DNA from: Candidatus Poribacteria bacterium
GTDB lineage: Bacteria; Poribacteria; WGA-4E; WGA-3G
Direction of reading: 5' to 3'
DNA: 64,000 nt
NCBI GenBank assembly: GCA_964291315.2
Contig: OZ219753.1
Coordinates: forward strand, 1,280,001-1,344,000
Shown: piece after piece, positions 45,101 to 50,003 of the stretch
Position numbering within the stretch: position 1 is the first letter of the stretch
How the letters are laid out: each line of letters opens with the position of its first letter
The notes under the pieces: generated by a model
Database searches by the model: none
What the model was told of the DNA's origin: nothing
What the model saw: the letters and a program-made list of their open reading frames with translations, nothing else
Made by a program: the position numbers and the translations under genes

Positions 45101-46534
45101 GTGGAGATCTATAATTTAACCATCATCGGTGGCGGAAGCGCTGGGCTAGTGCTTGCAGTAGCAGGCGCAAAGTTAGGCAAAAAAACCGCCCTCGTAGAAA
45201 AACACCGCATCGGAGGCGATTGCCTCTGGACCGGGTGCGTACCGTCCAAAGCACTTCTCAAAGCAGCGAAAGTCGCAAATTACATCCGAAATGCAGAAAG
45301 ATACGGCGTTGCTGCCATAGACCCTACGACTACTGCCGCCGATTGGCAGCAGGTGATGACGTATATACAAAGCGCACAACACACCATAGAAGAAGAACAC
45401 GATAACCCCGAACGGTTTCGAGAACTAGGCATCGATGTTATCTTCGGAAAAGGGCATTTTGAATCAGATGACACCTTCGTCGTCGAAGACGCAGAGAACG
45501 GCATGACACGTACCCTCAAAAGCAAAAAGTTTGTGATTAGCACCGGCTCTCGCCCACTCGTCCCGCCAATACCCGGATTGAACAGTTGTGAGTATCTCGA
45601 TAGCGAAACAGTTTGGGAATTAGATGAACGCCCGAATCGGATGCTCGTTGTCGGCGCAGGGCCGATCGGTGTCGAACTTGGACAAGCTTTTCATCGCCTC
45701 GGCGCTGATGTAACAATAGCACAACGCAGCAGCCGCATCTTGACAAAGGAGGACGCGGAGGTCTCTGAACAGATGCTACGCTACCTTCGAGCAGACGGCC
45801 TCACTATCCGACTCAACACAAATATAACGGAGGTTAGGCAAAACGGAGAAGGCACAAAGGTGATGCTCACCAGTCCGGAGGAAGGCAGTGTAGAACAGAC
45901 ATTCGATAAAATTCTAATCGCTGCAGGACGTGCACCAAACGTTGAGGACTTAGAACTTGACAGAATCGGCGTACGGTTAGGCAAACGCGGGATAGAAGTG
46001 AATAGTAGACTGCAGACGAGCGTTAAAAATATCTATGCCGCCGGTGATGTAATTGGACACTATTTGTTCACGCATGTTGCAGCGTTCCAAGCACAACTAC
46101 TCCTCCGAAACATCTTCTTTCCGTTCGCCAGAGCGATTAACTATGCAGTTGTACCCTGGACGACTTTCTCTGATCCAGAAGTGGCCCGCTGTGGTTTAAC
46201 AGAGGCAGAAGCACGTGAGAAACATGGCGACATCGACGTTTTTACGCTCAACCAAGCAGACGTTGACAGAGCCGTCGCTGAAGGGGAAACACAAGGCTTC
46301 ACGAAGGTGATCGCGAGTCGCTGGCGCGGAAAGATATTAGGGGTTCATATTGTCGGCACCAATGCCGGCGAGGTTATCCACGAGTACGTTTTGGCGATGC
46401 AAACAGGAACCACTTTGAGAAAATTAAGTCGTATGATCCACGTCTACCCCACATTTTCTAGCAGCGCGTGGCGTATCGCAGGCAAATGGTTCTCCGAAGG
46501 AACGTTGATTCAAACGCTGCGAAAATTGTTCTAA
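45101..46534 (+). CDS. Pyridine nucleotide-disulfide oxidoreductase (Lpd/MerA-like)
   Basis: GGGSAG, GGDCLWTGCVPSK redox disulfide, GAGPIG, YAAGD and HVYPT. No C-terminal Cys-Cys pair. Confidence 0.88.
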   Translation: MEIYNLTIIGGGSAGLVLAVAGAKLGKKTALVEKHRIGGDCLWTGCVPSKALLKAAKVANYIRNAERYGVAAIDPTTTAADWQQVMTYIQSAQHTIEEEHDNPERFRELGIDVIFGKGHFESDDTFVVEDAENGMTRTLKSKKFVISTGSRPLVPPIPGLNSCEYLDSETVWELDERPNRMLVVGAGPIGVELGQAFHRLGADVTIAQRSSRILTKEDAEVSEQMLRYLRADGLTIRLNTNITEVRQNGEGTKVMLTSPEEGSVEQTFDKILIAAGRAPNVEDLELDRIGVRLGKRGIEVNSRLQTSVKNIYAAGDVIGHYLFTHVAAFQAQLLLRNIFFPFARAINYAVVPWTTFSDPEVARCGLTEAEAREKHGDIDVFTLNQADVDRAVAEGETQGFTKVIASRWRGKILGVHIVGTNAGEVIHEYVLAMQTGTTLRKLSRMIHVYPTFSSSAWRIAGKWFSEGTLIQTLRKLF

Positions 46535-46570
46535 TCGGATTAAGTGGTCACTATTCATTATCCATCAAAG

Positions 46571-46698
46571 AAAAAAAGCCGGAAACCATGTTCCCCGTTA
46601 GTTCAAAACGGCTCAGAGTCCTAACCTAACTCACGCAACAGAGGTTTGACAGCTGCACCTTTTAGGAATATGGCTCCAGCTTGCCTAAGGAGGCTCAC
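46571..46698 (-). ncRNA. Candidate cloverleaf (tRNA/Y-RNA-like) non-coding RNA
   Basis: sigma54 promoter at the expected distance, an ~18-bp closing stem enclosing three 5-bp hairpins, and a U7 tail. Confidence 0.55.
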
Positions 46699-46708
46699 GG
46701 AAAAATAA

Positions 46709-46724
46709 AGCAAATGTCGTGCCA
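46709..46724 (-). promoter_or_regulatory. sigma54 (RpoN) -24/-12 promoter
   Basis: TGGCACGACATTTGCT matches TGGCACG-N4-TTGCW exactly. Confidence 0.75.
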
Positions 46725-46821
46725 CCCCAAAATAACTATTTTGAGCGATTTACCGGATAAAAGTGCCTGTTTTTCGAACAAGTTCGAACAAATATGACTA
46801 AAAAATAGGCAGCTGTCTGCT

Positions 46822-48279
46822 TTAACCCTTCACAACCCCGACAGGGCGGAGGCGCGCTACACGACGCGAGAGACCGGCTTCGTCAACAACGCGAACCACT
46901 TCATCGACATCCTTGTATGCTTCTGGGACTTCTTCCTGAAGCGTGCGCCTGCCTTCAGCGCGCACATAGATACCTTGCGCCTCCAAATCCTTCTGAATGG
47001 AACGACCCTTTGTCAACGCGATCGCCTTTCGCCGGGAGAGAACTCTGCCCGCACCGTGACAGGTTGTCCCCCACGTCTCTGCCATCGCGCCGGGCTTACC
47101 GACAAGCACATAAGAGGCAGTGCCCATATCGCCAGGAATCAGAACAGGTTGTCCAATTTTCTGGTATTTTTCGGGTATCTCTGGATGCCCCGCCGGAAAT
47201 GCACGCGTTGCCCCTTTGCGATGGATAAATAACTCCCGTTCTTCTCCATCTACCGTGTGTTTTTCAAACTTCCCAATATTGTGGGCTACATCGTAGACCA
47301 GCTCTAAACCGAGCTCATCCGCTGTCGTTCCGAAAAACTGCATGAAGGTCTGGCGCACAAGGTGCATGATGCACTGCCGATTGTTCCATGCATAGTTCGC
47401 ACCACACGCCATCGCAGCGATGTAGTCTTGTCCCTCAGGTGAATTGATTGGCGCTGAGGCAAGCTGCCGGTCGGGGAGAGTGATGCCGTATCTTTCAGCA
47501 ACTTTAATCCAGCTTTTAACGTGTTCATCGCAAACCTGGTAACCGAAGCCACGCGAACCGGTATGAATCATCACACAGATGCTGCCCTCGCTGAGCCCCA
47601 TCGCGTTAGCAGCTTCTCGGTAAAAAACGCGATCCACCGCTTGCACTTCAAGAAAGTGGTTACCCGACCCGAGCGTTCCGAGCTGATTCTTACCACGTTC
47701 TAAGGCGCGCCGGCTCGCAGCAGCGGCATCGGCGTGGTCTAGAAAACCTGTCGCCTCGGTAAAGTCGAGGTCACCGGCGTGTCCGTATTCACGCTCGATC
47801 GCCCACAGCGCACCTTTCTCTAACATCTGTCGTTCTTCTTGAAGGGTGAGCCGAATGTTGCCGCTTGAACCCACACCACACGGGATATTCTCAAACAGCT
47901 TGCCGACGAGTTCCCCGCGCTTCCCTTCAAGCTGCGAAACATCAAGATTCGTTCGAATGAGTCGAACCCCGCAGTTGATGTCATACCCAATCCCGCCCGG
48001 AGAGACCACACCATCCGCTTGAGGATCTGTGGCAGCGACACCGCCGATAACGAACCCGTAACCCCAGTGCAAATCTGGCATCGCAAGCGAATGCTTGACA
48101 ATACCCGGGAGATGCGCAACGTTCGCAACCTGCTGCAACGCCTCGTCACTTTTTGCATGCTCAAGAAGCTTCTCGTTCGCATAGACAATACCATCAACCC
48201 GCATGCCCTTCATGTAGCTCTTCGGGATACGCCAACGGTATTCGTCCAGCTTTTGGAGTGTTATGTTTTGTTGTGTCAT
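46822..48279 (-). CDS. rtcB: RNA 2',3'-cyclic phosphate/3'-phosphate-5'-OH ligase RtcB (long archaeal/eukaryote-like type)
   Basis: MPDLHWGYGF.IGGV, GYDINCG, GSGNHFLE, HTGSRG, HN, HRKGATRAF and CHGAGR motifs. Confidence 0.96.
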   Translation of the reverse strand: MTQQNITLQKLDEYRWRIPKSYMKGMRVDGIVYANEKLLEHAKSDEALQQVANVAHLPGIVKHSLAMPDLHWGYGFVIGGVAATDPQADGVVSPGGIGYDINCGVRLIRTNLDVSQLEGKRGELVGKLFENIPCGVGSSGNIRLTLQEERQMLEKGALWAIEREYGHAGDLDFTEATGFLDHADAAAASRRALERGKNQLGTLGSGNHFLEVQAVDRVFYREAANAMGLSEGSICVMIHTGSRGFGYQVCDEHVKSWIKVAERYGITLPDRQLASAPINSPEGQDYIAAMACGANYAWNNRQCIMHLVRQTFMQFFGTTADELGLELVYDVAHNIGKFEKHTVDGEERELFIHRKGATRAFPAGHPEIPEKYQKIGQPVLIPGDMGTASYVLVGKPGAMAETWGTTCHGAGRVLSRRKAIALTKGRSIQKDLEAQGIYVRAEGRRTLQEEVPEAYKDVDEVVRVVDEAGLSRRVARLRPVGVVKG

Positions 48280-48386
48280 ACCGCTATTATACAATATTTC
48301 TCACTATTAAGGTAACACATTCGCGTGAATAGCAGAATTACCTAGAAACAAATCAGTATTCAGTATAGCGAGGCGGATAAAAAAAC

Positions 48387-48570: not shown

Positions 48571-49263
48571 ATGACTCTATCGAATAGGACATTAATACGC
48601 GGCGATAATCTACAGGCAATGCGGGAGTTCTCCGATATTTGTATCGACTTGATCGCTACCGACCCGCCCTTCAACTCCAAACGAGACTACTTCTTGCCAT
48701 ACAGAGCCGAGAAAGGTCAAAAATCTGATGCCCTCGTCAAAGCGTTTTCAGATACATGGACATGGGGATCGGAAGCAGAGAGCACCTATCAAGAACTACT
48801 CATCGATGCCGAGGAACAGGTCAGCAGCACGATTCAAGGCCTACGCCAATGCCTCAACGAAATACCTATGATGGCATACCTAGTTATGATGACGGTACGC
48901 ATTGTAGAAATGCATCGCATTCTCAAGGAAACCGGCAGTCTTTACCTGCATTGTGATCCTACGGCAAGCCACTACCTCAAAATCATACTCGATGCCGTGT
49001 TCGGTACACAGAATTTTAAAAATGAAATTGTGTGGCATTACAAACGGTGGACAGCCGCTTCTAGACATTTTCAAAAAATGCACGATGTGATCTTCTGGTA
49101 TTCTAAAACGGACGCTCATACCTTTACACAACCGCTGCAACCTTTTTCTGATGAATCATATATCGAAAACACAGTGCGCGGTTTTGTCGACGGTAAACTG
49201 GTCCGATTAAAGCACAAAGACGGCAACTACGTCTTGCGCAAAACCCAAAAAGAGGGGTCTTGA
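48571..49263 (+). CDS. Site-specific DNA methyltransferase (N4/N6, beta-class), N-terminal fragment; frameshifted
   Basis: GDNL, DLIATDPPF, GSLYLHCDPTASHYLK and NEIVW motifs. Confidence 0.85.
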   Translation: MTLSNRTLIRGDNLQAMREFSDICIDLIATDPPFNSKRDYFLPYRAEKGQKSDALVKAFSDTWTWGSEAESTYQELLIDAEEQVSSTIQGLRQCLNEIPMMAYLVMMTVRIVEMHRILKETGSLYLHCDPTASHYLKIILDAVFGTQNFKNEIVWHYKRWTAASRHFQKMHDVIFWYSKTDAHTFTQPLQPFSDESYIENTVRGFVDGKLVRLKHKDGNYVLRKTQKEGS

Positions 49264-50003
49264 TGCACGATGTCTGGCATGACATCAACTTTATCCCGCC
49301 CTCAAGCACGGAACGGGCAGGCTACCCTACACAGAAACCTGTCGAACTTTACAAACGCATTATACAAGCGTCCTCAAATGCGGGTGATCGGGTCTTAGAC
49401 CCATTTACAGGTTGCGGGACAACGGCCATCGCAGCAGAAAGCTTGAATCGTCAATGGATAGGTATAGACCGCACCTACCTTGCCGTCGGGACTGTCGCCC
49501 AACAAATAGAGAAATACTTTCCGCACCTCCGTGACGACATCACTATTACCGGAACACCTGAAAACGCCCCTCAAGCGTTAGACCTAGCACACAGAAACCC
49601 ACAAGACTTCGCGGAATGGATTGTCACGCACGTATTGAAATTTAAATCGAATGCTAAGAAAGGTGGCGATGGCGGTATAGACGGTATCCTAAGATTCCCA
49701 ATCGGTAAAGTCAACGGGAGACGAGCGTTCGGGAAAGCGGTGGCACAAGTCAAGGGCGGTCAATACACGCTTGGAGATCTCCGCGATTTTAGAACAGCTA
49801 TGCGAAATCAAGAAGCTGAATTAGGAGTCTTTGTCGCTACAACACCGCCCACGCGCGGCATGAAACAGGAAATCGCACGCGCAGGACGCTATAAGCATCC
49901 TAAATATAAAATGGAAATACCGAGCTTGCAACACTATCAGATACAAGACTATTTCACCGGTAAACTGCCGCAATTGCCTCACGCTGAGAGGAACCTCTTA
50001 TAG
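49260..50003 (+). CDS. DNA methyltransferase C-terminal fragment fused to an Mrr-like PD-(D/E)XK domain
   Basis: DVW, YPTQKP and DPFTGCGTT, then DGGIDG...AQVKGG. Confidence 0.82.
   Translation: MMHDVWHDINFIPPSSTERAGYPTQKPVELYKRIIQASSNAGDRVLDPFTGCGTTAIAAESLNRQWIGIDRTYLAVGTVAQQIEKYFPHLRDDITITGTPENAPQALDLAHRNPQDFAEWIVTHVLKFKSNAKKGGDGGIDGILRFPIGKVNGRRAFGKAVAQVKGGQYTLGDLRDFRTAMRNQEAELGVFVATTPPTRGMKQEIARAGRYKHPKYKMEIPSLQHYQIQDYFTGKLPQLPHAERNLL

Follow-up and report, generated by a model that had tools for sequence, protein, structure and literature searches.

A predicted small RNA gene downstream of rtcB

The DNA analysed here, referred to as the window, is a 64-kb stretch of the genome of a Candidatus Poribacteria bacterium (genome G000, 95.2% complete), and the element in question is a predicted small RNA (sRNA) gene of ~128 nt on its minus strand, at 46571..46698. 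The gene lies between rtcB (46822..48294, −; Pfam RtcB E 1.9e-173), its upstream neighbour, and a convergent gene for a flavin adenine dinucleotide (FAD)-dependent pyridine nucleotide-disulphide oxidoreductase (45101..46534, +; Pfam Pyr_redox_2 E 9.6e-62). The predicted transcript runs from the +1 position given by a sigma-54 type -24/-12 promoter, TGGCACGACATTTGCT (46709..46724, −), to a tail of seven U residues (U7; 46577..46571, −). This promoter is the sole exact TGGCAC-N5-TTGC match in the window. Further upstream, at 46764..46811 (−), there is an inverted repeat, TGCCTATTTTTT ... AAAAACAGGCA, a putative upstream activating sequence (UAS) by its sequence and conservation. Within the transcript, the 5′ seed GCCUCCUUAGGC (46683..46694, −), in which CCUCCUU occupies nt 6-12, was recognized by its identity to the anti-Shine-Dalgarno (anti-SD) core. 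It is followed by the 5′ strand of a closing (terminator) stem defined by covariation (46665..46682, −), by inner hairpin A (GCAGC ... GUUGC; 46635..46656, −), which is helix 4 of the covariance model and is variable in sequence across the family, and by an inner motif recognized by sequence conservation, GUUAGGUUAGGACUCUGA (46613..46630, −). The 3′ strand of the closing stem and the U7 tail (46571..46594, −), located by folding and by a terminator scan, form an intrinsic terminator and possibly an Hfq-binding module. The original prediction for this locus, made from the letters of the window, had proposed a perfect sigma-54 promoter after rtcB (46724-46709, −), a +1 near 46698, an untranslated stretch of ~128 nt ending in U7, and a long closing stem, and all of these were recovered.

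The terminator scan, which covered 46300..47000, placed a hairpin with U-tract at 46597..46580, and the same scan found no sigma-70-like promoter in this interval. The covariance model matched the window at 46569..46697. The GUG at the predicted +1 of the window is not conserved, UAAG being the start of most relatives. The locus has its own promoter and an intrinsic terminator with a U-tail, and no conserved open reading frame (ORF), features expected of a trans-acting, base-pairing sRNA of the Hfq type. Taken singly within the window, neither the promoter match nor the fold is significant. When up to one mismatch was allowed, TGGCAC-N5-TTGC occurred three times in the window versus 4.9 expected, and the RNA folds at −42.3 kcal/mol (z = −1.66), with 11 of 200 shuffles folding equally well; the minimum-energy fold contains two inner hairpins. 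It is from conservation and covariation among relatives, and not from the window by itself, that the locus derives its significance.

Conservation of the promoter, the seed and the RNA structure

A search for homologues in related genomes and for covariation, advised along with the original prediction, was successful on both counts. Two covariance models were built, the first from 11 and the second from 61 sequences, and the alignment counts given here refer to the 61 loci of the second. TGGCA[CT]-N5-TTGC is present in 60 of them. The 12-nt inverted repeat has the family consensus TGTCTATTTTTT-N14-AAAAAATAGGCA; counted with patterns that we defined for each half, both halves are found in 43 of the 61 loci (the left half in 47, the right half in 55), and in 39 of the 43 two-half loci 38-40 nt separate the end of the right half from the TGGCA downstream of it. 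No second paired copy of the repeat was found in the G000 genome. These observations make the repeat the likely site of a sigma-54 activator. The seed is the most constant part of the transcript: [AG]CCTCCTT[AG]GG occurs in 59 of the 61 sequences and the variant GTCTCCTT in one more, and in 53 loci CCUCCUU starts 15-16 nt after TTGC, i.e. at +5/+6 of the transcript. The 16S rRNA 3′ end of G000 reads GGATCACCTCCTTTCT, and since CCUCCUU is common to the seed and to this tail, the seed copies the anti-SD core.

The closing stem consists of 17 pairs, with 96% of cells paired and 11 pairs changed on both sides, a level of covariation reached by none of 500 shuffles. The long stem begins at nt 17, which leaves the first 16 nt, including the seed, outside it. 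At the 3′ end, a T-run of at least four is present in 56 of the 61 loci. Inner hairpin A also shows compensatory changes (5 pairs, 3 changed on both sides, 89.7% paired), and most single-sequence folds have a hairpin at its position. The inner motif is conserved in another manner, that is by sequence and not by covariation: TTAGGTT is found in 38 and CCCTGA in 53 of the 61 sequences, and the two usually fold as a UUAGG/CCUGA hairpin.

This kind of conservation could suggest that the RNA binds or sequesters a protein, with GUUAGGUUAG(A)AUCCCUGA and the 5′ UUAGG as docking sites, in which case CCUCCUU would be incidental or part of a docking site. UUAGG does recur at the 5′ end in 24 of the 61 sequences (pair 7-12 as U-A), and the inner motif is not accounted for by base pairing of the seed with mRNAs. 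However, the short forms L060, L061 and L065 do without the inner motif and nevertheless have the promoter, the seed and the terminator, no candidate protein is linked to the RNA in the 41 genomic contexts compared, and CsrA (PF02599) has no match in G000. We therefore regard a protein-binding role as unlikely.

Distribution among Poribacteria

Within the window's genus (g1), BLASTN detected the promoter and the RNA in 10 of 24 genomes, with 68-78% identity. With the 11-sequence model, 55 of 65 genomes of the genus had a single match each and 92 of 103 genomes of the family were matched, and nothing was found in 47 genomes from three other families of the order. With the 61-sequence model, a single copy per genome was found in 90 of 99 sampled family genomes, and none in 51 genomes from eight other families of the phylum; five unmatched family genomes were still empty at E<=1, save for one 19.9-bit match (E 0.96). 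A scan for the combined promoter and seed pattern over one genome per species (185,579 species genomes) returned 97 matching stretches; 80 of them were listed, the majority under the title Candidatus Poribacteria. Thirteen matches from outside the Poribacteria were discarded as unrelated, being coding sequence or a repeated element of Methylomicrobium and Methylicorpusculum. This element, seen in metagenome-assembled genomes (MAGs) of the two methanotroph genera (L107, L108, L124, L144 and L161), is ~80 nt long, has the form TGGCATAGCCTTTGCC ... GCCTCCTTAGGCACTG ... GAAATTTGAAGTGCGAAAGGTATA, occurs in 2 and 3 copies in two of the MAGs, and bears no relation to the Poribacteria RNA.

The 61 homologues are 74-151 nt long. 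Forms of 74-99 nt occur in two other genera and have lost the inner domain partly or wholly while keeping the promoter, the repeat, the seed and the terminator, and the seed is kept in every size variant. At the other extreme, the 151-nt homologue of genome G080 (L082:6001-6151) carries a tandem duplication of the inner motif, GUUAGGUUAGCAUCUCUGAACCUU.

Rfam gave no match at gathering score either on 10 homologous 12-kb loci or on the window, and no family of Rfam 15 matches the sRNA. The literature search found no paper on small RNAs of Poribacteria or on their sigma-54 regulons. A ‘Poribacteria-1’ motif, reportedly described by Weinberg et al. in 2017, may be a prior description of the sRNA. 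No paper containing this term was found, and the main text of PMC5737381 does not contain ‘Poribacteria’. Taken together, the comparisons among genomes lead us to conclude that the predicted sRNA gene is real, representing a previously uncatalogued RNA family that appears confined to one family of Poribacteria.

Gene neighbourhood

Neighbourhoods were compared for 41 loci, each with 6 kb on either side. The usual arrangement is PPDK - Uma2 - cupin - GFO/IDH/MocA - rtcB - sRNA, beyond which lie the convergent oxidoreductase and an amidohydrolase gene. The oxidoreductase is the most constant neighbour (30 of the 41 loci), closely followed by the amidohydrolase (29), and rtcB is found in 25. The distance to rtcB was determined in 91 genomes carrying the RNA. 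Within the genus (n=49), rtcB is adjacent in 47 genomes, 2.9 kb away in one and on another contig in one. Among the 42 genomes of other genera, 11 have it adjacent, 11 have it at a distance of 2.5-12 kb, nine at 0.3-3.7 Mb and nine on another contig, and in two it was not found. The rtcB gene itself is present in 145 of 151 genomes of the phylum, including genomes of the genus without the RNA, and in every RNA-less family except one for which a single genome was sampled.

In some loci purC (SAICAR synthetase) or a different gene takes the upstream place of rtcB, and the promoter, the repeat and the RNA are still conserved there, which argues that the sRNA is an independent gene and not a mere rtcB terminator. 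The notion of an odd rtcB terminator combined with a chance promoter-like sequence could draw on the lack of significance of the promoter and the fold in the window considered alone, but it is refuted by this conservation behind other genes and in genomes where rtcB lies megabases away; its likelihood is practically nil. The gene comparisons indicate that the adjacency to rtcB is a matter of inherited gene order with no functional tie.

The stop codon of the convergent oxidoreductase gene is 36 nt from the 3′ end of the sRNA in the window, and often within tens of nt of it elsewhere. No terminator belonging to the oxidoreductase gene was seen in the 36-nt spacer (46535..46570), so its transcript may run antisense into the sRNA gene. 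The RNA could then be imagined as a cis-antisense or terminator element of the oxidoreductase gene, acting on the 3′ end of its mRNA by antisense pairing or transcriptional interference, and the constancy of this neighbour together with the short spacer would fit such a role. However, 11 of the 41 loci lack the oxidoreductase and have kept the RNA, the invariant part of the RNA is the 5′ seed, which is farthest from the oxidoreductase gene, and a cis-antisense function needs no conserved sigma-54 promoter with an activator site. We consider this explanation quite improbable.

Several observations were made on the neighbouring genes themselves. The oxidoreductase (45101..46534) reaches no NCBIfam cut-off. 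The best NCBIfam score of the window RtcB, which is below the cut-off, is on the intein-containing RtcB model. In the sister family f3 (e.g. G032:C1:3138612-3139778), many RtcB matches begin at profile position 46-49 in frames of ~1000 aa, and G161 and G166 have a separate short RtcB match to profile positions 1-50, which suggests that some relatives have an intein-bearing rtcB. Divergent from rtcB, a DNA methyltransferase is seemingly split into overlapping ORFs on the plus strand: 48571..49263 corresponds to positions 1-119 of the N6_N4_Mtase profile, and 49260..50003 to positions 141-211, the latter ORF carrying in addition a Mrr_cat/NA-iREase1 nuclease domain. The region 48571..50003 may represent a methylase-nuclease fusion that has been split or frameshifted.

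Relation to tRNA, Y RNA and RNA repair

The original prediction had drawn the RNA as a cloverleaf of three short hairpins within the closing stem, the last two arms having tRNA geometry and loops 1 and 2 being complementary, and it had proposed a tRNA-mimicking, Y-RNA-like molecule coupled to RNA repair as a substrate or decoy of RtcB or as a partner of Ro60. Such a proposal has a precedent in Salmonella, where expression of the rsr-yrlBA-rtcBA operon depends on RtcR and sigma-54, and where YrlA is a tRNA mimic (PMC7790460, PMC4201824). It also agrees with the frequent position of the RNA directly behind rtcB, in 47 of 49 genomes of the genus and 11 of 42 others in the family, and the window RNA can indeed be drawn with three inner hairpins.

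The drawing did not hold across the family. On the 61-sequence alignment, which is fitted to the covariance model's own structure and is thereby biased against alternative folds, the three-hairpin cloverleaf has 63.1% of its cells paired, a level that all 500 shuffles equal or exceed. Its third hairpin is paired in 34-44% of cases on this alignment, the single-sequence folds of relatives mostly show two inner hairpins, and the short forms dispense with the inner domain. The complementarity between loops 1 and 2 falls in regions that vary across the family. As for tRNA geometry, ARAGORN found no tRNA or tmRNA gene in the window, and the T-loop core GTTCRA is present in 2 of the 61 sequences. 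A search against Rfam for YrlA or tRNA, recommended as a check, gave no match at E<=10 in 46300..47000. YrlA is characterized by a conserved motif, GNCGAAN0-1G, and a tRNA-like domain (PMC4201824); the motif occurs in none of the 61 sequences and no tRNA-like domain was found. Furthermore, in RNAs of the YrlA type the 5′ and 3′ ends form a long stem bearing the Ro60 site, whereas the 5′ end of the sRNA lies outside its stem.

The proteins expected in such a system were likewise sought in the genome, with the result that rpoN was found and RtcR and TROVE were not. The RtcR domain PF06956 has no match in G000, and against the NCBIfam RtcR model, whose cut-off is 650, none of the eight G000 activators scores above 334. 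In the window, no -24/-12 match was found upstream of rtcB, even with up to one mismatch. TROVE/Ro60 was found neither in G000 nor in 26 other g1 genomes, nor in three g12, two g10 and one g11 genomes (g9, g10, g11, g12 and g26 being further genera). It is present in 23 of 27 g9 genomes, and in the 10 cases where it shares a contig with the RNA the two are always 248 kb or more apart. Combined with the occurrence of rtcB throughout the phylum irrespective of the RNA, and with its distance of 0.3-3.7 Mb from the RNA in nine genomes, these results largely refute a tRNA- or Y-RNA-like role alongside RtcB, to which we now attach only the faintest likelihood. Of the proposed undescribed RNA with its own sigma-54 promoter, the non-coding gene is supported and the tRNA-mimic, RtcB and Ro60 roles are not. 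On a separate note, the Ro60-like genes are those of g9 (G118, G106, G114, G098, G122 and others) and of the one g26 genome, and a true Y RNA might adjoin them.

Sigma-54 apparatus and RNA-binding proteins

The G000 genome encodes RpoN (Sigma54_DBD E 2.6e-56) and has eight strong Sigma54_activat matches. Six core activators are shared by all six genomes compared, i.e. G069, G071 and G138, which lack the RNA, and G065, G118 and G000, which carry it, and their orthologues are 64-90% identical (BLAST) in genomes with and without the RNA alike. An open frame of 184 aa in G000 matches the Hfq domain with 31.5 bits (cut-off 27), and this protein could bind the terminator stem and U-tail of the sRNA. 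A sponge of the CsrB/RsmZ type was considered and rejected, no CsrA/RsmA partner having been found in G000.

Candidate targets of the seed

Thirty sites resembling a ribosome-binding site (RBS) in G000 have at least 9 nt of complementarity to the seed. The longest, of 12 nt (CTAAGGAGGCTT), is at the RBS of a TonB-dependent receptor, and a site of 11 nt precedes a protein with an FGE-sulfatase domain that has three paralogues among these sites, the four together showing 9-11 nt of complementarity at their RBS. Orthologues of the receptor were found in 41 of 41 family genomes. Among the g9 orthologues, 9 of the 12 shown have the 9-mer CCTAAGGAG and two have one-letter variants of it, within diverged flanks; the 9-mer is also present at the receptor of G106 and G122, i.e. 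in 11 of 14 g9 genomes. It is absent from the g11 and g26 receptor orthologues. The same 9-mer is found with a second receptor paralogue, ~47% identical, in three of five complete g9 genomes, and with a secreted protein of 240-265 aa in four of five. Overall, five g9 genomes contain 44 instances of CCTAAGGAG-N4-12-ATG versus 20 of the reversed pattern, and for the control GGTAAGGAG the same genomes contain 18 versus 14. In G000, few RBS-like sites have CC in front of TAAGGAG (4 of 144).

Two further observations concern these genes and the 16S tail. Many g1 receptor orthologues (L252-L266) have a palindrome, TGGCGTTTACGCCA, ~20-35 nt upstream of the start codon and just 5′ of the RBS, which could be an operator or a hairpin. 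G000 also has two copies of the 16S 3′-end motif on the same strand, 1845 nt apart (G000:C4:3185839 and 3187684, +), which points either to 16S genes in tandem or to an artefact of the assembly.

Proposed mechanism

Our interpretation, which we hold with moderate confidence and on the strength of sequence comparisons, is that the locus encodes, as a gene in its own right, a regulatory sRNA of ~130 nt that acts in trans, depends on sigma-54 and an activator, and carries a 5′ anti-SD seed. Sigma-54 holoenzyme would bind the -24/-12 promoter and be activated by an enhancer-binding protein at the repeat ~40 nt upstream. The primary transcript would begin 4-5 nt before the invariant CCUCCUU, the copy of the 16S anti-SD core, and the seed would pair with the ribosome-binding sites of a few mRNAs, thereby blocking translation initiation. 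The best target candidates would be TonB-dependent receptors of the outer membrane, along with other proteins of the envelope or of uptake. The covarying stem and U-tail would end transcription and stabilize the RNA, and could be bound by the Hfq-domain protein.

A number of points weigh against this interpretation. That a transcript exists at all, and where it would start and end, is itself a prediction from sequence. The seed region can form a weak 4-bp hairpin, with none of its four pairs showing double-sided changes, so that partial sequestration of the seed can be envisaged. The conserved inner motif, with its family consensus GUUAGGUUAGAAUCCCUGA, is left unexplained by base pairing with targets. 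Since the six core activators are present in RNA-less genomes too, no activator is singled out by presence or absence. As regards targets, the TonB-dependent receptor was picked as the best-scoring one in G000, and CCTAAGGAG is absent from the 15 other g1 receptor orthologues shown. SD sequences flanked by CC are not enriched in G000. The follow-up of ORFs behind CC sites covered 30 of the 44 sites of the five g9 genomes; in it, 12 of 25 ORFs recurred for CC versus 3 of 10 for the GG control, which comprised one orthologous group over three genomes. Because the GG control recurs too, shared descent explains part of the recurrence. A duplex-energy scan of 6890 GGAGG sites in G000 yielded no outstanding RBS target, its query being the window-specific nt 17-25, which are within the closing stem and thus poorly aimed. 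The receptors and the other mRNAs should accordingly be seen as candidate targets with weak support.

A broader version of the anti-SD idea would have the sRNA act, under stress, as a sigma-54-triggered general anti-SD mimic that competes with the 16S 3′ tail for the strong SD sequences of many mRNAs. The rtcB product is reported to re-join cleaved 16S 3′ ends, and the ancestral adjacency to rtcB might then reflect shared handling of anti-SD-end damage. We hold this version to be highly improbable.

Comparison with known systems

Like GlmY/GlmZ, Qrr1 and the Campylobacter CJnc230 (PMC3045617, PMC10162802, PMC11187230), the Poribacteria sRNA has a small non-coding gene that combines a -24/-12 promoter with a putative activator site and an intrinsic terminator, and it would be a single-gene output of an enhancer-binding protein. 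Unlike them, it has the anti-SD copy at its extreme 5′ end and belongs to another phylum, and there is no relation in sequence or in Rfam. With alpha-r14/NfeR1, which has CCUCCUCCC in unpaired regions, and AbcR1/2 of alpha-proteobacteria (PMC10746234), it shares an ultraconserved C/U-rich anti-SD motif in the midst of variable stems, and a predicted RBS occlusion on transport-related mRNAs. NfeR1, however, has three motifs, located in hairpin loops, whereas the Poribacteria RNA has one, at the 5′ end, which reads CCUCCUU(A/G)GG and not CCUCCUCCC; moreover, NfeR1 is activated by LsrB and repressed by NtrC, in contrast to the sigma-54 type promoter found here, and the two RNAs are not homologous (PMC10746234). 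NcS25 of Burkholderia represses an outer-membrane porin through a single-stranded 7-nt anti-SD seed (PMC10117139). The likeness lies in a short seed with complementarity to SD sequences of outer-membrane protein mRNAs and in a terminator near to or shared with a neighbouring gene; the NcS25 targets have been tested experimentally, whereas those in Poribacteria are predicted, and the RNA family and the promoter type differ. As for YrlA and rsr-yrlBA-rtcBA (PMC4201824, PMC7790460), the resemblance consists of an RNA of ~100-130 nt with a long stem, located near rtcB in a genome with sigma-54, but the Poribacteria RNA has no Ro60 gene next to it, nor was one found in its genus, it has no GNCGAAN0-1G motif and no tRNA-like domain, its 5′ end is outside the stem, and no RtcR was found. 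By analogy, the sRNA would act like the known sigma-54-dependent and anti-SD sRNAs while belonging to none of those families.

Poribacteria are uncultivated sponge symbionts, and with the sRNA described here RNA catalogues gain a family. The locus also indicates that adjacency to rtcB and a sigma-54 promoter do not, on their own, denote a Y-RNA or RNA-repair system. What it may offer instead is a compact regulatory module, in which a likely activator site, a sigma-54 type promoter and an anti-SD seed would be combined with candidate targets in outer-membrane uptake.

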